Origin: Patescibacteria group bacterium
GTDB lineage: Bacteria; Patescibacteriota; Gracilibacteria; JAHISY01
Direction: 5' to 3'
Assembly: GCA_043812055.1 (NCBI GenBank)
Contig: JBDRMN010000058.1
Span: forward strand, 184 to 64,183
Length of the DNA stretch: 64,000 nt
A program made the translations under genes and the position numbers. The notes under the pieces were generated by a model, which was not told the origin of the DNA, did no database searches, and saw nothing but the letters and a program-made list of their open reading frames with translations. Shown here in pieces: positions 1,039 through 58,033 of the stretch (positions are counted from its first letter, which is position 1; every line of letters begins with the position of its first letter).

Positions 1039-1083
1039 TTTTTGCCTTCTTGCTCTCTTTTTTTGTCTTCCCCGCCTCTCTTT

Positions 1084-1143
1084 TGTCTTCCCCGCGAAAG
1101 CGGGGATCCAGATCATTCCCCCGCTTGACGGGGGAATCCAGAC
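1084..1143 (+). repeat. Two GC hairpin units (TGTC-TTCCCCGC-GAAA-GCGGGGA-TCCAG; TTCCCCCG-CTTGA-CGGGGGAA-TCCAGAC)
   Basis: Stems and loops read directly from the sequence. Confidence 0.9.
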
Positions 1144-1233: not shown

Positions 1234-1536
1234 ATGTTTGTAGAAAAAATCTACTACGTTTATATTCTGGCCAGTAAAAAGAACGGCACTCTTTATGTCG
1301 GCGTTACAAACGATTTAGGATCAAGAGTTCGAGAACACAGACAAGGAGAAGGTAGTAAGTTTGCCAAGAAGTACAAAGTGAACAAGCTAGTCTACTTCGA
1401 AGATCACGGAGATGTGACTGAAGCAATTGCCCGAGAGAAACAAATTAAGAAGTGGGAACGAAAATGGAAACTGGAGCTAATCGAAAAGAACAATCCCGAA
1501 TGGCAGGATTTGTATTTCAAAGTTTACGAAGGGTAG
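1234..1536 (+). CDS. Small GIY-YIG (URI-domain) nuclease, COG2827/YhbQ-like
   Basis: 100 aa from the internal ATG: MFVEKIYYVYILASKKNGTLYVGVTNDLGSRVREH... with GIY..YVG..R..H/E motifs. 84/100 identical to the copy at 24214-24516. Confidence 0.85.
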   Translation: MFVEKIYYVYILASKKNGTLYVGVTNDLGSRVREHRQGEGSKFAKKYKVNKLVYFEDHGDVTEAIAREKQIKKWERKWKLELIEKNNPEWQDLYFKVYEG

Positions 1537-1540
1537 TTTT

Positions 1541-1597
1541 CTGGAATCCCGCGTACGCGGGATTATTTTCTGGGTTCCCGCTTTCGCGGGAATGACA
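1541..1597 (+). repeat. Two hairpin units in inverse orientation (CTGGA-ATCCCGCG-TA-CGCGGGAT; CTGGG-TTCCCGC-TTTC-GCGGGAA-TGACA)
   Basis: Read directly. 1575-1606 is identical to 24613-24644 (32 nt). Confidence 0.9.
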
Positions 1598-1643
1598 ATG
1601 TTTTTATTTTTTAAAGAGTCTTCTCGCGGGGAAGATAAAAGTA

Positions 1644-3385: not shown

Positions 3386-5017
3386 ATGGCTCTTAAGAAT
3401 TCACTTCCATTTTTCGATTCACTACCACCTGACGACAAAGTCAGGAGTGAAATAGAGTTTGAATCCACTCTCCGTAGGGCCAAAGATGAGAACATGCCTA
3501 TCGCTACGGTGGCGGGTGGAACTCCAGTCTGCTGCATAGATGGTAAGTTTTCTCATGGTAAAGGTGTAACCGACAGGATAAATGGTCAGAAACGAGTAAT
3601 AGAGCCAGGCAAAGGACCTTCCGAGACAGAGATAGAGAGCTTGGAATTAGGCATGCAACTTATTAAGCATCTAAACCAAGAAGGTATTTCGAACATACTA
3701 GGGATACCCGAGTTTGACACACAGGGAGTTCCTCCAAAAGAGCGTGAAATCCTTCGTAAGCTCGGTTCGGAAGAGCTCGTGAGGATGTTTTTGCCTAAGA
3801 AGTATGAAGAAATAATTGGATCAAATATAGACCACGTAAGAATATTATTCTCTTCCGGCTACAGTCATGCTACTGGCGAACTCCTTAAAGGTGCTAAACG
3901 CAGACTAGATAGTAATCTGAGTAATACCGAAACAGCAGAGGGCAAAATTGCTAAGTTCTTTTATGAAACTACGGCCCTTATGTATAACGCTTATGTAAAG
4001 GCAGCCAAAAGTCCCTTCGTGCATCATGTTTTGCTTACTACCCCTCTTTCGCGCAAAGAACCACGACCGGAAGAAGAAATTAGTCTTGGTCTCGATATAG
4101 TGGATACTCTTCAGGTGTTAGGGTGCATCCTTTTAACTTTTGAAGACAAAATTCATTGCGGATCAGTAACCGCAGGGCGTCTTTCCGCGATAAGACGCTT
4201 ACTTGGAAAAATCTTTGATCAGATTAATAAAAATACTCCCATTATCACCGTAACTTTTCAGGATATTGTTGACGACGGAATGAGTGGTGTTAACTGGATG
4301 CGAGGTGTAGACATGCTTACAACTTTAAGTAAGGTTTTTGACCTACATTTACTTTTTCTTTCTCAGCGGGGAAAAATCGAGCGTTCCTTTTCCTCTCAGA
4401 TAAGTAAAAATGCGAAAGACGCCTATAAAGACGTACTGCACGGCAAAATAAAAACCGGGATCAGGGAATCAAAAATAGCCCTTCCTGAGGATGTACACAA
4501 CGTTATTGAAAATACCGAAAAGAGTGGGGAATTGCTATATCAACACCTACGTGAAGAGATTAAAGAAGTCACTCATACAGACAGATTAAAAATCGTTCCT
4601 CAAATCGGAAGTACATCCCTCAATCTAAGGGGAGATCCCGACGATAGAAATGTTAGAGATAAAATCGAATATGCGGCCGCAAGAGACCGAGCAGCAAAAG
4701 CAGCAGAAGAAGAAAAAACTCAATTAAGAGATACTGTAAGTGGATTTACTGCGGAGGCTCGGGCAACTGTAAACGAAATAGCTAAATCTACGACAGCAAC
4801 GGGACAATCAAAAATTAGGCAATTAAAAAAGTTGATTTTGAACCTGGCTTCAGAGATCAAAGATAGTGCTGAAGATAAAGACAAGGCAATGGCTGAAAGA
4901 ACGAGTCCACCAGACAGAAGAAAAAAACGGCAAGTAGGCAAAATACCTAATGGCACAGATAGGAGAAGTGGATTCAAGGATCGAAAAGATTGTGAATCTA
5001 AATCCTGCACCATATGA
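3386..5017 (+). CDS. Hypothetical protein, 543 aa, no recognisable domain (AT-rich ORFan)
   Basis: Long uninterrupted ORF with a charged, Lys/Arg-rich C-terminus. Composition is visibly AT-richer than the neighbouring genes. Confidence 0.6.
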   Translation: MALKNSLPFFDSLPPDDKVRSEIEFESTLRRAKDENMPIATVAGGTPVCCIDGKFSHGKGVTDRINGQKRVIEPGKGPSETEIESLELGMQLIKHLNQEGISNILGIPEFDTQGVPPKEREILRKLGSEELVRMFLPKKYEEIIGSNIDHVRILFSSGYSHATGELLKGAKRRLDSNLSNTETAEGKIAKFFYETTALMYNAYVKAAKSPFVHHVLLTTPLSRKEPRPEEEISLGLDIVDTLQVLGCILLTFEDKIHCGSVTAGRLSAIRRLLGKIFDQINKNTPIITVTFQDIVDDGMSGVNWMRGVDMLTTLSKVFDLHLLFLSQRGKIERSFSSQISKNAKDAYKDVLHGKIKTGIRESKIALPEDVHNVIENTEKSGELLYQHLREEIKEVTHTDRLKIVPQIGSTSLNLRGDPDDRNVRDKIEYAAARDRAAKAAEEEKTQLRDTVSGFTAEARATVNEIAKSTTATGQSKIRQLKKLILNLASEIKDSAEDKDKAMAERTSPPDRRKKRQVGKIPNGTDRRSGFKDRKDCESKSCTI

Positions 5018-13125: not shown

Positions 13126-13192
13126 ACCCGCGAGCTTACAAAATTTATCTCTCTTGTGCCACACCATTGGCGAATTAACGAAACACCGTACA

Positions 13193-13210
13193 GGCAATTC
13201 ACGAATTGCC
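13193..13210. promoter_or_regulatory. 18-bp palindrome GGCAATTCACGAATTGCC (copy 1), operator-like
   Basis: Near-perfect inverted repeat GGCAATTC-AC-GAATTGCC, upstream of the yggU-like gene. Confidence 0.45.
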
Positions 13211-13246
13211 TCTCTGGATATAATTGCCTCTACAGATATCAGTACG

Positions 13247-13264
13247 GGCAATTCACGAATTGCC
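13247..13264. promoter_or_regulatory. 18-bp palindrome GGCAATTCACGAATTGCC (copy 2)
   Basis: Identical copy 54 bp from copy 1. The 26-bp context GTAC(A/G)GGCAATTCACGAATTGCCTCT is repeated. Confidence 0.45.
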
Positions 13265-13314
13265 TCTTCGAATAGAATCGCCCCTCCTAAATTTTCTCAA
13301 TAATCCTAATCATC

Positions 13315-24130: not shown

Positions 24131-24644
24131 TGTCATCCCGGCCGATCCCGAGCCTGTCGAGGGAGAGAGCCGGGACCCAGACAAAATTTCCGCGCAAGCG
24201 GAAATCCAAACAATCAACCCTCGTAAAACTTAAAATACAAATCCTTCCATTCGGGGTTATTCTTTTCTATTAATTCTAGTTTCCACTTTCGCCTCCACTT
24301 CTTAATTTGTTTCTCTCGGGCAATTGCCTCAACTATATCTCCGTGTTCTTCGTAATAAACAAGCTTATTTATCTTATATTTCTTCGCAAATTTACTACCC
24401 TTTCCTTCCCTGTGTTCTCGAACTCTCAAGCCTGGATCATTGGTAACACCAATGTAAAGGGTGCCATTCTTCCTGCTCGCCAAGATATAGACGTAATAGA
24501 TTTTTTCTGTCCACATAGCTGGTAATTCTAAATGTATTAACTAAAACTCAAAAACTTACATGAACTAAAGTTCATGTTTCTGGACCCCTGCTTTCGCAGG
24601 GGATAATCTGGTTTCCCGCTTTCGCGGGAATGACAATGTTTTTA
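24131..24644. mobile_element. Candidate GIY-YIG cassette copy 2 (gene inverted relative to copy 1)
   Basis: Left units at 24131-24182 and 24186-24210. Right units at 24580-24602 and 24608-24635. 24613-24644 is identical to 1575-1606. Confidence 0.55.
24214..24516 (-). CDS. Small GIY-YIG (URI-domain) nuclease, second copy
   Basis: MWTEKIYYVYILASRKNGTLYIGVTNDPGLRVREH...; 84/100 identical to the protein at 1234-1536. Confidence 0.85.
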   Translation of the reverse strand: MWTEKIYYVYILASRKNGTLYIGVTNDPGLRVREHREGKGSKFAKKYKINKLVYYEEHGDIVEAIAREKQIKKWRRKWKLELIEKNNPEWKDLYFKFYEG

Positions 24645-24715
24645 GTTTTTTATTCAAATTATTTTTACCGTGAAAGTATGACAATTTCCCGCGTTACTTC
24701 TAAACTCATCAAAGT

Positions 24716-29458: not shown

Positions 29459-29542
29459 TGTCAGAAAGTTAAAGAGATTTTGATTTTAGGTACTCCTAAT
29501 CGGATTTTCAAACAGAGCCAAGATTAAGGATTAAGAAAATAG

Positions 29543-29591
29543 CATACTACAAAATGGCGTAAGTTTGCGCTATTTTGTAGTATGAATTTGG
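29543..29591. repeat. Conserved AT-rich hairpin element (copy 1)
   Basis: CATACTACAAAATGGCGTAAGTTTGCGCTATTTTGTAGTATGAATTTGG. About 41/49 identical to 48594-48643. Confidence 0.85.
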
Positions 29592-29597
29592 AGTGTG

Positions 29598-48245: not shown

Positions 48246-48332
48246 GCTCGGGTGGCGGAATTGGTAGACGCGTACGCTTGAGGGGCGTATGGGCATTAGC
48301 CCGTGGAGGTTCAAGTCCTCTCCCGAGCACCA
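48246..48332 (+). tRNA. tRNA-Leu (anticodon GAG), long variable arm, CCA encoded
   Basis: Acceptor GCTCGGG/CCCGAGC. Anticodon stem TACGC/GCGTA with loop TTGAGGG. Variable arm TGGGCATTAGCCCGT. T-arm GGAGG-TTCAAGT-CCTCT, then ACCA. Confidence 0.9.
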
Positions 48333-48563: not shown

Positions 48564-48593
48564 GTAACTTCCTAACTACTCACACTATAACGT

Positions 48594-48643
48594 CATACTA
48601 CAAAACAGCATAAATTTACGCTATTTTGTAGTACGATATTTGG
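48594..48643. repeat. Conserved AT-rich hairpin element (copy 2)
   Basis: CATACTACAAAACAGCATAAATTTACGCTATTTTGTAGTACGATATTTGG. Confidence 0.85.
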
Positions 48644-48654
48644 TCAATCTTAAA

Positions 48655-49890
48655 TTACTCGCCTTCCTCTTCCGTACCTTCAACCGCAGTAACCTTACCA
48701 GTCTTTAGAAACTCCACCGCCGCGTCGAGCTGCGGATCTTTCTTGGCGAAGTAGTCTTCCGGAGAAAGCTCTACTTCGATATCCGGCGTGATCCCCTCTT
48801 CGTTCACATCCCGTCCGCTTGGCGTGAACCATTTCGCAATCGTGATTCGCAGCATTGAACCGTCCTCGAAATTATTCACGAGCTCTTGAACCGTACCCTT
48901 ACCAAAACTCTGCTCGCCAATCACTGTAGCCCGCCCGTTGTCCTGCAAGGCTCCCGCCATGATCTCACTCGAGCTGGCTGAGCCTGCGTTGATCAAAACC
49001 ACCAGAGGTGTCTCGGGCAACAGCGCCGCTCCCGAAACGACAATCGTTTTGTCTGAGCTTTGCCTTTCGTGGATCGTCACGATGTTGCCAGTGGCCAGCA
49101 ACTTCGAAGTCATCTCTACCGCCGCATCGAGGAAGCCTCCGCCATTGAAACGCAAATCCAAAATCAAACCTTGAGGATTTTTTAAGGCCAGGTCGGCCAG
49201 TGCCTTCGTAAATTCCTCAGCCGTATCATCCGCGAAAGTCGCCACAGTCACGACTGCCAGACCGTCCGGTCGTAGCTCGGTAACCACACTTTCGATGTCA
49301 ATGAAGTCGCGAGTAATCGTGATCTCTTGAGACTTGGGGTTACCGTTACGGAAAATTGTCAGCGTAACCTGCGTACCCGGTTCGCCCCGGATCCGCTTCA
49401 CCGCTTCAAACAGCGAGTAGTCGGCTGAGAATTCATCGTTAATCTTAAAAATATGGTCACCCGGCAGCAATCCGGCTGCTTCAGCTGGTGAGCCCCGCAA
49501 GGGGCTGATCACCACCAACTTGTTGTCCCGGGTGCCAACTTCCGCCCCAATCCCGGTGAGATCGCCCTCCAACGAATCAAGGAATTCTTCGCTTTCCGTC
49601 GGGTCCAGAAACTCCGAGTTGGGATCACCCAAGCTGTCCACAACCCCCTTTATCGCCCCGTAAAGCATTTTGGTTGGATCAAGTGCCTCCACGTCGACAA
49701 ACTTCTCTTTGGTTTTGCGCCACACGTCCCAAAAAAGACCCAGCTCCACACCGTCCTCGGATGATCCGGAGCGCACTGCTCCACTATCTGTTTCCGCCGG
49801 GAACTGCAGCTGTGTGCCAACAAAGTAACCGGCCCCAAAAGTCAGGACGATGATAGCTGAAGCTAGAATTTTTTTCTTCACTTTTTTCAT
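48655..49890 (-). CDS. Carboxy-terminal processing protease (S41)
   Basis: Signal/TM segment, PDZ domain (GSPAEAAGLLPGDHI), catalytic region LINAGSASSSEI...GEQSFGKGTVQ. Start set at MKKVKKKIL. Confidence 0.85.
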   Translation of the reverse strand: MKKVKKKILASAIIVLTFGAGYFVGTQLQFPAETDSGAVRSGSSEDGVELGLFWDVWRKTKEKFVDVEALDPTKMLYGAIKGVVDSLGDPNSEFLDPTESEEFLDSLEGDLTGIGAEVGTRDNKLVVISPLRGSPAEAAGLLPGDHIFKINDEFSADYSLFEAVKRIRGEPGTQVTLTIFRNGNPKSQEITITRDFIDIESVVTELRPDGLAVVTVATFADDTAEEFTKALADLALKNPQGLILDLRFNGGGFLDAAVEMTSKLLATGNIVTIHERQSSDKTIVVSGAALLPETPLVVLINAGSASSSEIMAGALQDNGRATVIGEQSFGKGTVQELVNNFEDGSMLRITIAKWFTPSGRDVNEEGITPDIEVELSPEDYFAKKDPQLDAAVEFLKTGKVTAVEGTEEEGE

Positions 49891-49919: not shown

Positions 49920-51506
49920 TTACCATCCCTCCTCAAAAAGTTCTTCGGCGGTTTCGACCAGACTCTTTTTCGCCAGTGCCGGACTGCTGGCTGCCGGATC
50001 CGGTGCACTTGATTTTAGTCCGATTTCTGCTCGTTCGACGTCTACCTGGACCGACGTTCCCAATAGTTCTGAAAAAATCTCAGCCAGCCCCGCTCGGGCT
50101 TCTTTACTTTCGAGCTTACCCATCAAAAAATCCGAACCAACCCCTAGCACCACTTTGTCATCTTCGGTACGCAAAACGATACACTCTTTCAAAGCTAGTT
50201 TGATCGCCGACTTCTTGACCTTGGTAATCACCTCAGGCAACGCCGCCTTGGCCGCCTCCAGGCTCAGCCCTTTGGGGGCTTTAACTTCTTTAGCTGGCTG
50301 CGTTTTTGATTTAGCAGGGCTCTTCTTTTCTGAGGTCTCACTCTTTTTACTAGCACCCTTGTCCGCCGTAGTTTCGCCTTGCGGAGCGGAGGCGGATGAA
50401 ACCTGCTTGCCCTGAGCTTGCCGAAGGGTTCCCTGCTTGCCCGCCGAAGCCTTGGCGAAGGCGGGGAACCTGGAACCTGTCACGTCGCTCGCGAGCGACG
50501 TGACCTGAATTACAGCCATCTCCAGCGGCAACTGTGGAATAATCGCATTCTTCAGTTCCTCCCCTGTCCGAGTAAAAACCTCGACAATGGTGAGAACTTC
50601 TTTGGCTTCCGCCAGGCAGTTTTCAGCCACCTTCTCGAGCATGATCTCTCGCAAACGCATCAGGAGATTTTTATTGAATTGAATCAGATTTACCCCCTCG
50701 GCGACCAAACCGTTGATCGTCTCGAGAGCTTCGGGAAGTTTCTGAAAGAGCAGGGCAAAGACAAAATCCTCCACCGCCTGTGGACGGGTCAGCCCGAGAT
50801 TTTGGGCAACTGCCGCTGTGTTAATTTCTCCGGTCTGCCCGAACTGTTCGAGCATCCCCACAGCATCCCGCATGCCTCCGGCCGACTGCTTAGCAATTAG
50901 CTCCAAAGCTTCGGGCTCAGCCTTGATCCCCTCTTTTTCCGCAATCTCCGCCAGGTGTTTGGTGATCTTGGCATTCTCAATCCGGTGAAAATCAAAACGC
51001 TGGGTGCGAGAGAGAACCGTCTCGGGAACTTTGTGAGGTTCGGTGGTAGCAAGGATAAAGTAAGCGTGTCCCGGTGGTTCTTCCAGAGTTTTCAGCAAAG
51101 CGTTGAAGGCTTCCTTGGTCAGCATGTGCGCTTCATCAATCACGTAAACTTTGACCCGCGCCCGCGAAGGGGTGAATTGAATCTTTTCTTTAAGCTCGCG
51201 AATTTCATCGATACCCCGATTGCTCGCTGCATCGATTTCGATCAAATCAACTAAGCGACCATTCAGGGCGTCCACGCAAATCTCACACTCGTTGCAAGGC
51301 TCACCATCCTCGTCTGGATTGAGACAGTTGAGCGAACGGGCGATTATCCGAGCCAGGGAAGTCTTGCCTGTTCCGCGGGTTCCCGCGAAGAGGTAAGCAT
51401 GCGTGAGCCCCTTGTTTTTGAGAGCATTACGAAAAGTCTGTTTGACATGATCTTGCCCTACAATTTCGGCTAATTTCTGCGGTCGGTATTTGCGGTAGAA
51501 ACTCAA
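49920..51506 (-). CDS. dnaX: DNA polymerase III gamma/tau subunit
   Basis: YRPQKLAEIVGQDHV, GTRGTGKTS, a Zn module CxxC...CNECEIC, and VIDEAHML. TTG start. Confidence 0.92.
   Translation of the reverse strand: MSFYRKYRPQKLAEIVGQDHVKQTFRNALKNKGLTHAYLFAGTRGTGKTSLARIIARSLNCLNPDEDGEPCNECEICVDALNGRLVDLIEIDAASNRGIDEIRELKEKIQFTPSRARVKVYVIDEAHMLTKEAFNALLKTLEEPPGHAYFILATTEPHKVPETVLSRTQRFDFHRIENAKITKHLAEIAEKEGIKAEPEALELIAKQSAGGMRDAVGMLEQFGQTGEINTAAVAQNLGLTRPQAVEDFVFALLFQKLPEALETINGLVAEGVNLIQFNKNLLMRLREIMLEKVAENCLAEAKEVLTIVEVFTRTGEELKNAIIPQLPLEMAVIQVTSLASDVTGSRFPAFAKASAGKQGTLRQAQGKQVSSASAPQGETTADKGASKKSETSEKKSPAKSKTQPAKEVKAPKGLSLEAAKAALPEVITKVKKSAIKLALKECIVLRTEDDKVVLGVGSDFLMGKLESKEARAGLAEIFSELLGTSVQVDVERAEIGLKSSAPDPAASSPALAKKSLVETAEELFEEGW
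50358..50504. repeat. Cluster of four GC hairpin units in frame within dnaX
   Basis: Units at 50358-50400 and 50406-50433, a near-palindrome at 50433-50473 (CCCGCCGAAGCCTTGGCGAAGGCGGG) and a perfect 26-nt palindrome at 50479-50504 (GTCACGTCGCTCG/CGAGCGACGTGAC). Confidence 0.85.
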
Positions 51507-55204: not shown

Positions 55205-58033
55205 TTATTCACTTTTGTTCTTAAAACCCTTGGTCTGCGCTTCTCGCTGGGCGAGCACTTCCTCAGGGTTGGTAGTGACAATTTGATTTTCCGAATAGCT
55301 CGCAATTACCTGAATCGCCACGTGCTTGTTGTCCGCGAAGAAAAGTCCCTGCCCCATTCCGGAATTCAGCAACATGTATTTCTCTCCGTCAGTGAGGTTG
55401 AAGGTTTTTTGCAGAACATCCATCGAGCTCGGCGCCTGTTTGAGCAGCAGTTGCATCGAGGAGTTGGTCACGATCGGACGACCGTAAGAGCTACCGAGGA
55501 AGTCCTCCACGTCTTGCGTGATTGCCGTAATCCCAAGGTAATACTTGCGAGCCCGCTTTACCAGACCAAAAAGGAATTTGGCAGCATCCTCGTGCTGCAT
55601 CAAAATCCAGGCCTCGTCGACCACGAGCAGGCGTTTCTTCATTTCGCTGCGGACCCGATTCCAGATGTAGTTCAGAATGATGAACATTGCGGTTGGTCGC
55701 AATTCGTCTTCGAGATCACGGATGCAGAAGACCACGACTCCCGAATTCAGATCCACGTTTGTTTCCTTGTTAAAAATTCCCCCAAAAGTTCCGCTCGTGT
55801 ATTTCTGCAAACGTTGGGCAAGATCTTCCGCCCCTTTCGTCGAGCTGAGTACCGAGTGGAAGTCTTCCATCGTCGGCATCGCGACTGAGTTGGGATCCTC
55901 TACTTTCATCGTAATTCCCTTGACCGCGTAAGTATCGATCAAGGCTTTATCGATCAGCGCTTCTTCAGTTGAAGTCATCTTCCCGAGCATCAGCTTCATC
56001 AGGGCAGTGAGGGTAATGACGTTCTCGCGCAAGAGGTCTCCTGGTTTGAGATCATCACCCTCGAAAGGTTTGGGCAAGTCGAAAGGATTGATACGCTGAT
56101 TTGAGTTGAGGGAGACTTGCAAATAGGTTCCGCCCATGGTTTCACAAAGCGCTTCATATTCGTTCTCCGGATCGATCACAATCATGTCCGTGCCAAACAT
56201 CGCTTGGCGTAAAATCTCGAGCTTCACTGCATACGACTTTCCTGCTCCCGAACTCGCAAACACACAGGAATTGGCATTCGGCAAAGCAAAACGGTCAAAG
56301 ATGATGAGTGAATTATTGTGACGATTGAGCCCGTAGAGAATTCCTTCATCCGTTGCCAGTGTCGAGCTCACGAACGGGAAGGTCGTCGAAAGTGGTGAGG
56401 TATTCATATTGCGGTGCACCTCCAGCTCATCCACGCAGATTGGCAGAGTGGAATTAAACGCATGCTCACCCTGGATGTCAGCCCGTTTCGTGAGGACAAG
56501 CTTCCCACCCAGCTGATTCTCGAGCATCTTGGTCGTTGCTTCGAGCTTTTTGAGATCGTCCGCGTAAACCGTGAAATAAAAACCAAACTGGAAGAACTTC
56601 TCCTGACCACGCTGGAGATCAGTCCGTAGTTGTTCCGCGTCCTCAAGTGCAGTCTCGAGCACCGGATCACGCACATTCCCCTTTTCGCGCTGCATGGTGA
56701 TAGAGCTCTGGATCTGCGCTACTTTCTTTTTCAGTATGTGCATAATTTCATCCGAGGAAATCGGATAGATAAATTGCGCCATGTCAACCGTCGCGTCGAA
56801 ATTAATCACCGGACTAAGCCAGTTGGTCTCGAGGAAACGCGGATAGGCGTAAACAAAGAAGCTCCGCATGTAGACACCCGAGAGATTGAGATGATCGTAG
56901 TGAATCTCGAGTGAACTCGGTGAAATCAGGTCCTTCACGCTAGCCAGACCTTGCTGATAAATTCGTTCCGCTTCCACAAACTTTTTCTGTTCAGGGTTCT
57001 TGGTGACTGACTGGCCTGGAGTCGGATAGACAGTTTGCTTAGCCTTTTCGAAGATTTTTCTCAAAAAAGAACCAGTCGCTTTTTGGTTGTGATTGAGATA
57101 CTGCTCAGTAGCAGTTTGGTCTCCGGTCACTTGTGGCTTTCCGGGATTGGCCGGTACTGGTTTCGCAGACACAGCTTTGGTGGCTGCGAAAGTTGGCAGT
57201 TCCTTCGCGCCTGGATTGGCAGCTGAGATTTGTCTGATCGAGACCGCCTGCTTGGACTGAGTAGTTGTGGCAGTGACAGGAGACCCGCTTCGTGGGGCCC
57301 CTTTTGCGGCAACTGCTTGCTGTTTCCGCACTGCGATTGCCGGGCTCTGGGCCGCCAGTTTCGACACAGGCTGCGCATTGCTGGCTGCCTCAATTTCAGC
57401 TGCGGTTTTATTGCGAATGGTTTTTGTGACTACTTTGGCTGCTGTTTGCTTGGGCACCTGAGCCACTTCGGTAACTTCGTTAGGAAGCGGTTTGAAAACT
57501 GTTCCGATTGGGGTCGTTTTTATCTGTTTCTGTTTGCTGGCTGCCTCAATTTCTGCCACAGTTTTGGTCTTAATTACAGTTGCATCTGCAGATTTTAAAT
57601 TCGCTGCAGCCTGTTTTTGGGGAACTGGCGAAAAGCCCTGCTTAGGAGCAGAGACAGCTGCCGGGCTCTGGGCTGCCAGTTTCGACGCAGACTGCGCATT
57701 GCTGGCTGCCTCAATTTCAGCCGTGGTTTTATTGCGAATGGTTTTTGTGACTGCTGCTGCTTGCTTGGGCACCTGAGCCACCTTGGCAACTTCGTTGGGA
57801 AGCGGCTTGAAAGTTACTTCAACTGTGGCCGTTCTTGTCTGCTTCTGTTTGCTCGCTGCCTCGATTTCCGCCGCAGTTTTAACCTTGATTGCGTTTGCGT
57901 TTACAGATTTCACACTTGCTGCAGTCTGTTTTTGAGGAACTGGCGAAGAGCCCTGCTTGGAAGCAGGTACAACTGCCGGAGATGCAGACTGGGCAGTATT
58001 GCGCGGATCGGTCACGGGAGAGTTTTCCGCCAT
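55205..58033 (-). CDS. virB4: VirB4/TrbE-family type IV secretion ATPase with a repetitive N-terminal extension
   Basis: Walker A region CVFASSGAGKSYAV, Walker B LLVVDEAW and ITQDVEDF. The first ~320 aa are Ala/Lys/Gln-rich repeats. Confidence 0.8.
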   Translation of the reverse strand: MAENSPVTDPRNTAQSASPAVVPASKQGSSPVPQKQTAASVKSVNANAIKVKTAAEIEAASKQKQTRTATVEVTFKPLPNEVAKVAQVPKQAAAVTKTIRNKTTAEIEAASNAQSASKLAAQSPAAVSAPKQGFSPVPQKQAAANLKSADATVIKTKTVAEIEAASKQKQIKTTPIGTVFKPLPNEVTEVAQVPKQTAAKVVTKTIRNKTAAEIEAASNAQPVSKLAAQSPAIAVRKQQAVAAKGAPRSGSPVTATTTQSKQAVSIRQISAANPGAKELPTFAATKAVSAKPVPANPGKPQVTGDQTATEQYLNHNQKATGSFLRKIFEKAKQTVYPTPGQSVTKNPEQKKFVEAERIYQQGLASVKDLISPSSLEIHYDHLNLSGVYMRSFFVYAYPRFLETNWLSPVINFDATVDMAQFIYPISSDEIMHILKKKVAQIQSSITMQREKGNVRDPVLETALEDAEQLRTDLQRGQEKFFQFGFYFTVYADDLKKLEATTKMLENQLGGKLVLTKRADIQGEHAFNSTLPICVDELEVHRNMNTSPLSTTFPFVSSTLATDEGILYGLNRHNNSLIIFDRFALPNANSCVFASSGAGKSYAVKLEILRQAMFGTDMIVIDPENEYEALCETMGGTYLQVSLNSNQRINPFDLPKPFEGDDLKPGDLLRENVITLTALMKLMLGKMTSTEEALIDKALIDTYAVKGITMKVEDPNSVAMPTMEDFHSVLSSTKGAEDLAQRLQKYTSGTFGGIFNKETNVDLNSGVVVFCIRDLEDELRPTAMFIILNYIWNRVRSEMKKRLLVVDEAWILMQHEDAAKFLFGLVKRARKYYLGITAITQDVEDFLGSSYGRPIVTNSSMQLLLKQAPSSMDVLQKTFNLTDGEKYMLLNSGMGQGLFFADNKHVAIQVIASYSENQIVTTNPEEVLAQREAQTKGFKNKSE
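57329..57994 (-). repeat. Tandem coding repeat, about 2.1 copies of about 318 bp (105-107 aa)
   Basis: Residues 14-112 and 113-219 align (KQG.SPVPQKQ...KT.AEIEAASKQKQ...FKPLPNEV..VAQVPKQ...TKTIRNKT.AEIEAASNAQ). Confidence 0.85.

Follow-up and report, generated by a model that had tools for sequence, protein, structure and literature searches.

Ssn proteins form a family of site-specific single-stranded DNA (ssDNA) endonucleases built from a single GIY-YIG domain (CDD cd10448, GIY-YIG_unchar_3) (Chenal 2025, Nat Commun 16:2388, PMC11893778). Neisseria meningitidis SsnA and three homologues bind an oriented hairpin, NTS (CGTCATTCCCGCGMAVGCGGGAATCYRG), solely as ssDNA, and their cleavage falls a few nucleotides 5' of the hairpin; the Neisseria and Wolbachia members are inactive on double-stranded DNA, on RNA and on the reverse strand (Chenal 2025, PMC11893778). 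Here we analyze a 64-kb stretch of DNA from a Patescibacteria group bacterium (GenBank assembly GCA_043812055.1, contig JBDRMN010000058.1), referred to at its full length as the window. Two short loci in it, copy 1 (gene at 1234-1536) and copy 2 (24131-24644), very probably are SRM-ssn-SRM cassettes, in which the gene for an Ssn-family enzyme is framed by copies of its own recognition hairpin, the Ssn-related motif (SRM).

The SRM is a generalization of NTS. The Ssn target consists of a 5'-(C/T)GTC tag, an 8-bp stem beginning with AT, a loop of 4-5 nt and a CCA tail; mutagenesis showed that the tag bases govern cleavage and that the stem and the first C of the tail govern binding, with loop identity being non-essential and extensions at the loop position tolerated (Chenal 2025, PMC11893778). 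Among Ssn homologues, 71% have a nearby SRM and 42% have one on both sides, and the NTS-ssnA-NTS layout has been likened to an insertion sequence; for N. meningitidis SsnA, a role in modulating recombination or transformation has been demonstrated (Chenal 2025, PMC11893778). The same hairpins had been catalogued as CGTC-tagged repetitive extragenic palindromes (REPs), with an unpaired (C/T)GTC tag, a stem of 8-9 bp starting with AT, a loop of 4-5 nt and a CCA tail; family CGTC-1 takes in Neisseria dRS3 and Rickettsia RPE-4/6, and a dedicated transposase for these REPs was not found (Di Nocera 2013).

Comparison with described systems

Like the Ssn/NTS system, the window loci combine a GIY-YIG protein of one domain, ~95-100 aa long and equipped with identical catalytic residues, with the hairpin consensus GTCATTCCCGCGAAAGCGGGAATCCAG and the inverted NTS-gene-NTS layout (Chenal 2025, PMC11893778). 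They differ in their host, a metagenome-assembled genome from the Patescibacteria, or candidate phyla radiation (CPR), a group unmentioned in that paper; in the presence of two old paralogous cassettes 23 kb apart; in cassette ends that are each a doublet of a tagged outer and a tag-less inner unit; and in the absence of solo units from the 64 kb. Between the upstream units and the start codon lies a leader of ~90 nt that has a palindrome of its own, whereas in most homologues a unit abuts the gene, at a median gap of 9 nt upstream and 5.5 nt downstream as measured with the strict published SRM regular expression (regex).

CGTC-1 REPs resemble the window units in their (C/T)GTC tag, 8-bp AT-start stem, 4-nt loop and CCA tail, as well as in head-to-head pairing and occasional intragenic copies (Di Nocera 2013). 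No dedicated enzyme was found for them in that study, whereas the window repeats frame a nuclease gene, as in Chenal 2025; the copy number in the window is also tiny (eight units in 64 kb). The REP/REPIN systems of REP-associated tyrosine transposases (RAYTs) likewise place a small gene between inverted hairpin repeats recognized as ssDNA, and their repeats can exist without the gene. RAYT, however, is an HUH tyrosine transposase (IS200/IS605-like) that works through a covalent tyrosine intermediate, while the window protein is a hydrolytic GIY-YIG enzyme of unrelated fold; the RAYT-associated REP tag, GTAG, is unlike that of the window, where the predicted cuts fall on opposite strands. Membership in the REPIN-RAYT systems was rejected because the associated gene encodes a GIY-YIG nuclease and not an HUH/Y1 transposase.

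The GIY-YIG protein

An earlier note on this DNA, made from the letters alone, had described a GIY-YIG gene at 24214-24516 on the minus strand whose product shares 84 of 100 residues with that of 1234-1536 (plus strand), and both the open reading frames (ORFs) and the alignment agree. The 100-aa copy 2 product is a single-domain nuclease that matches Pfam PF01541 (GIY-YIG) over residues 7-80 (E 1.7e-17) and has no other domain; the length that defines the family is below 150 aa. Against the Neisseria gonorrhoeae homologue, 48 of 89 positions are identical (54%, E 6e-35), covering 89 of ~94 residues. The family is delimited by BLASTP to Neisseria SsnA at E<1e-10 and at least 75% coverage, and the gonococcal comparison lies within both thresholds. 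The comparator was the translation of NZ_CP119142.1 1881719-1881988, standing in for N. meningitidis SsnA (CAX49033.1). Two N. gonorrhoeae chromosomes, listed in PLSDB as plasmids, hold a single homologue amid 11 NTS units that span 3.3 kb around the gene and score 30-46 bits with our covariance model R1; from its being the sole match in its record and from these units we infer that the gonococcal gene is the ssnA orthologue. In NZ_CP119142.1 (L200, 2.17 Mb), the homologue at 1881712-1881988 has no in-frame ATG; the ATG close by lies in another frame, which soon closes with a stop, and the gene may be a pseudogene in that strain.

Residues Y10, Y21 and E68 are the counterparts of N. meningitidis Y6, Y17 and E64, are invariant in 24 homologues (alignment A2) and keep the same 11- and 47-residue spacings. 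The protein is predicted to form one compact GIY-YIG fold (pLDDT 87.5), for which the best matches in the PDB are UPF0213, Slx1 and HIGLE. The PDB contains no deposited Ssn structure; among solved proteins, UPF0213 members come nearest, with a sequence E of ~1e-6, a weak similarity that would fit a separate subfamily. A GIY-YIG core is common to I-TevI-type homing endonucleases, UPF0213/YhbQ and Slx1, and weak PHROG, PADLOC and TIGR01453 matches were obtained. Unlike homing endonucleases, which have a double-stranded site, the window protein has no DNA-binding extension and no intron or intein context, and the Ssn target is an ssDNA hairpin. Sub-threshold matches to group I intron endonuclease were all that NCBIfam returned, and PADLOC and PHROGs, limited to weak homing-endonuclease GIY-YIG matches, lend no support to a defense system. 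Rfam found an RNA family in neither cassette; its sole match in the window is a tRNA at 48246-48329.

Hairpin units of the two cassettes

The four hairpin units that had been listed for copy 2, at 24131-24182, 24186-24210, 24580-24602 and 24608-24635, are all present. Downstream of the gene, the outer unit (24131-24182, plus strand) is an SRM/CGTC-type REP that reads TGTC-ATCCCGGC-24-nt loop insert-GCCGGGA-CCCAGAC, as shown by sequence, hairpin scan and DNA fold; its 5' TGTC tag is directed away from the gene. It contains every SRM element and yet is missed by the published SRM regex and by R1, because of its long loop only. The inner unit (24186-24210, plus strand) reads ATTTCCGC-GCAA-GCGGAAAT-CCA and has no 5' GTC tag; R1 matches it at 24186-24208 over model positions 7-29 only (18.3 bits, E 0.0077), and the DNA fold concurs. 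On the upstream side, the inner unit (24578-24603, minus strand; CCCCTGC-GAAA-GCAGGGG-TCCAGAA) also lacks the GTC tag and is matched by R1 over model positions 7-32 (16.9 bits, E 0.019), again in agreement with the DNA fold. The outer unit (24606-24637, minus strand; ATTGTCATTCCCGCGAAAGCGGGAAACCAGAT), which is part of a 32-mer shared with copy 1, is a full SRM, matched by R1 at 36.1 bits (E 4.6e-8) and by the published regex at 24608-24635. Folded as ssDNA, each side forms a pair of hairpins (z = -3.7 and -5.8 relative to shuffled sequence). Between the upstream units and the gene, the leader (24517-24577, minus strand) comprises a terminator-like palindrome, ACATGAACTTTAGTTCATGT, with a T-run (24577-24558), followed by TAGAAT 8 nt before the ATG. 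It is conserved in both window copies and in both copies of a close relative described below, and might serve as a promoter. Unit loops often carry inserts of 20-26 nt, some of them small hairpins themselves, as at 24131-24182, L001 6340-6385 (right end), L016 and L012; the loop appears to be a tolerated or preferred point of insertion.

Copy 1 has the same layout around its 100-aa GIY-YIG gene. Its upstream outer unit (1082-1113, plus strand) is a full SRM (R1 38.0 bits, E 1.3e-8; regex 1084-1111), followed by an inner unit with ATC replacing GTC (1114-1143, plus strand; R1 12 bits, E 0.53; seen in the DNA fold). Downstream lie an inner unit (1539-1564, minus strand; R1 20.9 bits, E 0.0014), with a terminator-like match at 1545-1564, and an outer unit (1568-1599, minus strand), a full SRM with the second occurrence of the 32-mer (R1 38.2 bits, E 1.1e-8; regex 1570-1597). 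Immediately beyond the left boundary of copy 1, a half-unit, TGTCTTCCCCGC, with a pyrimidine spacer, CTCTCTTT, occupies 1064-1083 (plus strand); it is absent in the close relative, appearing as a 41-bp insertion of the window against L001 (alignment A5). Such tandem half-units, GTCATTCCCGC plus a pyrimidine-rich spacer of ~10 nt, lie directly 5' of a full unit in 1-3 repeats with a period of ~20-22 nt. They were found at 26 of 626 units as against 2 in the downstream control, including the window, L106, L119, L122, L144, L061, L080, L021 and L197 (5497-5560), and could be a footprint of cutting and repair.

The outer units follow TGTC-ATTCCCGC-GAAA-GCGGGAA(c/a)-CCA, with the last stem base mismatched in two and T for A at the first stem base of the left unit of copy 1; their (C/T)GTC tag, AT-start stem, 4-5 nt loop and CCA tail are those of the CGTC-REP definition. 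Apart from the two units that bear the 32-mer, the stems of one cassette differ in sequence from those of the other, and the inner units have ATC, ATA, TTA or AAA at the position of GTC. Exactly three matches to the published regex occur in the window, all of them outer units, where dinucleotide shuffles predict 0.28. R1, which was built from 44 units that all come from other organisms or phyla, gives these three 36-38 bits (E ~1e-8); its matches to the inner units, which lack the 5' tag, have E 0.001-0.5, with no further match at E<1 within the 64 kb. All eight units flank the two ssn genes. With respect to the published family feature of an SRM within 500 bp on both sides, copy 1 has regex matches on both and copy 2 on its upstream side; downstream of copy 2, the outer unit fails the strict regex owing to its 24-nt loop and the inner unit is found by R1 (E 0.008).

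In mechanistic terms, the units on both sides would be copies of the recognition site, arranged as inverted repeats with the outer GTC tags facing outwards. Cuts are accordingly predicted just outside each cassette end, on opposite strands. The inner units keep the stem and CCA tail and have lost the GTC tag, and so may be bound but poorly cut.

Hairpins across the family

A search of 5.8 billion proteins gave more than 8,000 homologues of ~95 aa, 55-73% identical, from very many phyla, and a metagenome scan found closest relatives of at most 73% identity. A curated phage genome collection contained no Ssn homologues; IMG/VR contigs held 23 loci (L171-L193) with homologues that are 48-62% identical. 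At 80 loci inspected in species-representative genomes, ...TGTCATTCCCGCGAAAGCGGGAATCCAG... almost everywhere precedes the gene and its reverse complement follows. The strict published regex overlooks many visible units, returning only 18 of 81 loci as flanked on both sides, and for this reason the covariance model and a stricter custom finder (GTC tag, stem of at least 7 bp, CC/CT tail) were used. Among the 167 homologues with both flanks available, the custom finder placed a forward unit upstream in 79%, a reverse unit downstream in 82%, and both in 71%. Unit density is 4.7/kb near the gene as against 0.22/kb farther off, a 22-fold difference. Stems vary by taxon (CCCGC, CCTGC, CCCGG, CCAGC, CCCGA and others), and the GTC and CCA tags are constant across phyla.

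These distributions bear on the reading that the hairpins are ordinary terminators or mRNA stabilizers, with the GIY-YIG repair gene nearby by chance. Two units and the leader palindrome do score as terminator-like, and REPs have often been proposed to be RNA elements (Di Nocera 2013). Nevertheless, hairpins also stand upstream of the gene, in mirror orientation; the conserved tags are unpaired; units are enriched 22-fold beside the Ssn gene family; and the published binding and cleavage are ssDNA-specific, with no activity on RNA (Chenal 2025, PMC11893778). We consider this explanation scarcely credible.

Several points weigh against the assignment to the Ssn system. Hairpin specificity varies between Ssn homologues (Chenal 2025, PMC11893778), so that the targets assigned to each paralogue among the eight units, whether for binding or for cutting, are conjectural. 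Identity of the protein was measured on the gonococcal stand-in, and an Ssn-type activity is attributed to the window proteins by analogy with the Neisseria and Wolbachia members. The downstream outer unit of copy 2 escapes both the published regex and R1. Finally, the 100% pairing in alignment A3 is circular, because its units were chosen for perfect pairing and it is thus not independent evidence; the variety of stems alone is informative.

Age of the two copies and the shared 32-mer

The exact 32-mer, TTCCCGCTTTCGCGGGAATGACAATGTTTTTA, at 1575-1606 and 24613-24644, lies inside a 44-nt match of 95% identity, and a leader (ACATGAACTTTnnTTCATGTAAGTTTT) is also common to both cassettes; both features had been pointed out in the earlier note and are indeed there. 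Aligned in gene orientation, the cassettes are homologous over ~515 bp, and inverted repeats form both termini of each: TTGTC(A/T)T-stem-loop-stem-CCAGA at the left end, its reverse complement (TCTGG-stem-loop-stem-ATGACAA) at the right. The oriented hairpin architecture with conserved ends is genuine, as is the likeness to an insertion sequence, which was also remarked on for Neisseria (Chenal 2025, PMC11893778). Because the genes lie on opposite strands, the 32-mer falls downstream of the gene in copy 1 and upstream of it in copy 2, at the cassette end in each case. It is common to both because the cassettes have terminal inverted repeats, not because the same end was conserved.

Twenty-three of the 32 bases are the Ssn recognition hairpin, near-constant from Neisseria to Chloroflexi. 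The 9 nt beyond it (ATGTTTTTA) have been retained in part by the close relative, at its orthologous cassette ends, and are not a family-wide feature, the family 5' flank being merely G-poor with T or C at -1. Synonymous sites of the paralogues are saturated, with a proportion of synonymous differences (pS) of 0.74 and dN/dS of 0.026. The ends are more conserved than the genes and than synonymous sites, the latter a check that the earlier note had proposed, and the two copies are old paralogues under strong purifying selection (dN/dS 0.02-0.06 across comparisons, 0.02-0.03 for copy 2). As part of the overall explanation, we are confident that the exact 32-mer was conserved as the target of the enzyme and not as a mark of young copies.

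In the close relative (from an ENA metagenome; threonyl-tRNA synthetase, ThrRS, 92% identical), a single 86.8-kb contig holds both cassettes, and their sites match those in the window, xth|argS and DUF1206|thrS. Neighboring genes differ between the window and this relative at pS 0.43-0.66 (dS 0.65-1.6), and yet the left hairpin doublet of copy 1 is identical at 64 of 65 positions; near-identity despite such synonymous divergence indicates that the ends are under selection. The earlier note took two copies with conserved ends to argue for mobility or gene conversion; on such a reading, the cassettes would be recent products of transposition or would be undergoing homogenization by gene conversion. 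The exact match does extend 9 nt past the hairpin, and two copies do lie within 23 kb. Against this, synonymous sites are saturated and each copy has a same-site counterpart in a relative at dS ~0.65-1.6, so that recent transposition or conversion is not supported; moreover, the 32-mer joins opposite cassette ends, its 23-nt core is the consensus of many phyla, and the other units differ in their stems. Such a recent origin is very unlikely. Between the window and the relative, the copy 2 genes (ssn2), if treated as orthologues, show pS 0.73 as against 0.43-0.66 for their neighbors, over 100 codons only, which is no more than suggestive of cassette replacement, and we make no such claim. The units flanking copy 2 also differ in number and identity between the two genomes.

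Site occupancy and mobility

The earlier note would have given up mobility if only two copies existed, if a function accounted for the shared repeat and if the copies were fixed in all relatives. The window does have only two copies, and a function does account for the repeat, but the cassettes are not fixed. Relatives whose ThrRS is 75-79% identical have an empty copy 2 site, and copy 2 is absent from L089 and L087. In L089 synteny is fully conserved and only 10 bp separate the pabB-like gene from thrS; this locus also lacks the DUF1206 gene, which leaves the boundaries of the gain at the copy 2 site undefined. At the copy 1 site, no ssn gene is present in L194 (arginyl-tRNA synthetase, ArgRS, 73%) or L199, and in L197/L198 (ArgRS 72%) it lies on the other side of xth. 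What remains of the mobility claim is its long-term form, which variable occupancy and homology ending at hairpins make plausible.

Cassettes 85-94% identical occur in different contexts on unrelated metagenome contigs. L146 and L157, for instance, are 87% identical over 365 bp, with homology running from CGTCATT... exactly to ...AATGACGG, and L141/L170 and L108/L129 behave alike; at these clean boundaries there is no consistent short target-site duplication. Long direct repeats of flanking DNA (49-203 bp, 92-98% identical) bracket the cassettes of L014, L038, L021, L036, L004, L010 and L017, a feature unmentioned in the Ssn paper (Chenal 2025, PMC11893778). In L014 (2746-2930 and 3327-3510), the repeat takes in the final 75 bp of the host ORF that lies upstream, the terminator of that ORF and the intergenic stretch, and looks like a target duplication of ~200 bp. 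The argS|xth spacer of L194 (76 bp, 3780-3855) holds two decayed inverted hairpins ~13 nt apart, a gene-less, REPIN-like pair. In L197 (5245-5276), and identically in L198, a full unit (R1 E 4e-10) lies within the ssn ORF as an in-frame 15-aa insertion, which falls in the loop between helices 1 and 2 and is present in two independent assemblies (JGI, ENA). At the copy 2 site, thrS of cassette-free relatives begins with ATGACAATTTC (L084 4939-4970; L087 4001-4015), a string that survives in the window (24678-24685) as a relic, out of frame and 38 nt ahead of where thrS now starts. The same 8-mer, ATGACAAT, recurs at 24629-24636 as the outer end of the adjoining hairpin unit, which may be coincidence or a hint on target choice.

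The comparisons between relatives support a discrete module that moved during evolution and do not reveal the mode of movement. It is quite possible, though short of probable, that the cassette acts, or once acted, as an autonomous mobile element, with Ssn as its nuclease, the outer hairpins as its ends and solo hairpins or pairs as non-autonomous derivatives, in the manner of RAYT and REPINs. In its favor are the variable occupancy among syntenic relatives (L089, L194, L197), homology that starts and stops exactly at the hairpin tags in unrelated contexts, the full unit inside the ssn ORF of L197/L198, and the differing number and identity of units between orthologous cassettes; in addition, 55-73% identity across many phyla and the large number of tiny contigs suggest that the gene has spread horizontally and that assemblies break at the repeats. 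On the other hand, no excision or insertion event was observed, no consistent target-site duplication was found, the gain at the copy 2 site includes the DUF1206 gene, and the two copies of the window have remained stable after its divergence from the close relative. To our knowledge, no strand-transfer activity is known for a hydrolytic GIY-YIG nuclease, which also speaks against autonomy. The more specific proposal of a compact autonomous element of ~0.4-0.5 kb, in which Ssn nicks ssDNA just outside each outward-facing hairpin, is doubtful, and we offer it tentatively.

Alternatively, the cassettes could serve a domesticated host function as in Neisseria, trimming incoming or exposed hairpin-bearing ssDNA and thereby modulating recombination or transformation. 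The role demonstrated for N. meningitidis SsnA (Chenal 2025, PMC11893778) is consistent with this, as are the strong purifying selection on the window genes and their retention in two lineages. The 64-kb window, however, has no units beyond the flanks of the two genes and so offers little substrate, compared with the 11 units in 3.3 kb of the gonococcal locus, and a host role of this kind seems rather unlikely. Because all eight units flank the two genes, a self-contained, largely quiescent element is slightly favored over Neisseria-type control of recombination; we thus slightly favor the view that the cassettes are self-contained, anciently mobile modules rather than regulators of a genome-wide repeat population.

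Other repeats in the window

Further repeats in the window are distinct from the SRM units. A near-perfect palindrome of ~43 nt, CATACTACAAAATGGCGTAAGTTTGCGCTATTTTGTAGTATGA, unrelated to the SRM units, occurs in two copies (79-86% identical) at 29523-29597 and 48581-48655; one of them lies ~265 nt downstream of the only tRNA gene in the window. Two tandem repeats of ~315-320 bp (81-94% identical) occupy 57338-57979, with a shorter motif recurring at 51220, and probably represent a repetitive coding region. At 13188-13285, another type of hairpin, GGCAATTCACGAATTGCC and then TCT..GGA, occurs twice side by side and is unmatched by the SRM model.

Implications

The observation made on this DNA is real, and the system to which it belongs was already published in 2025; it is reported here newly in a CPR genome. 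Two annotations as "GIY-YIG nuclease family protein" and a set of palindromes thereby become a named enzyme-target pair, which is a gain in annotation and not a discovery. The comparative material bears on a question left open by both source papers: no dedicated transposase was found for CGTC REPs (Di Nocera 2013), and NTS-ssnA-NTS was noted to look like an insertion sequence (Chenal 2025). Homology that ends at the tags, variable occupancy, a unit inside an ssn ORF and a gene-less inverted pair suggest that the cassette and its hairpins do move. If the autonomous-element reading is true, Ssn would be the missing mobilizing enzyme for the whole CGTC-type REP superfamily, the tag-less inner units would be non-cleavable binding sites, and the half-unit arrays and long flanking duplications would be footprints of a cut-and-repair cycle. 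These observations on mobility are the part worth pursuing, and a CPR genome with two cassettes and no visible solo repeats could provide a clean test system.

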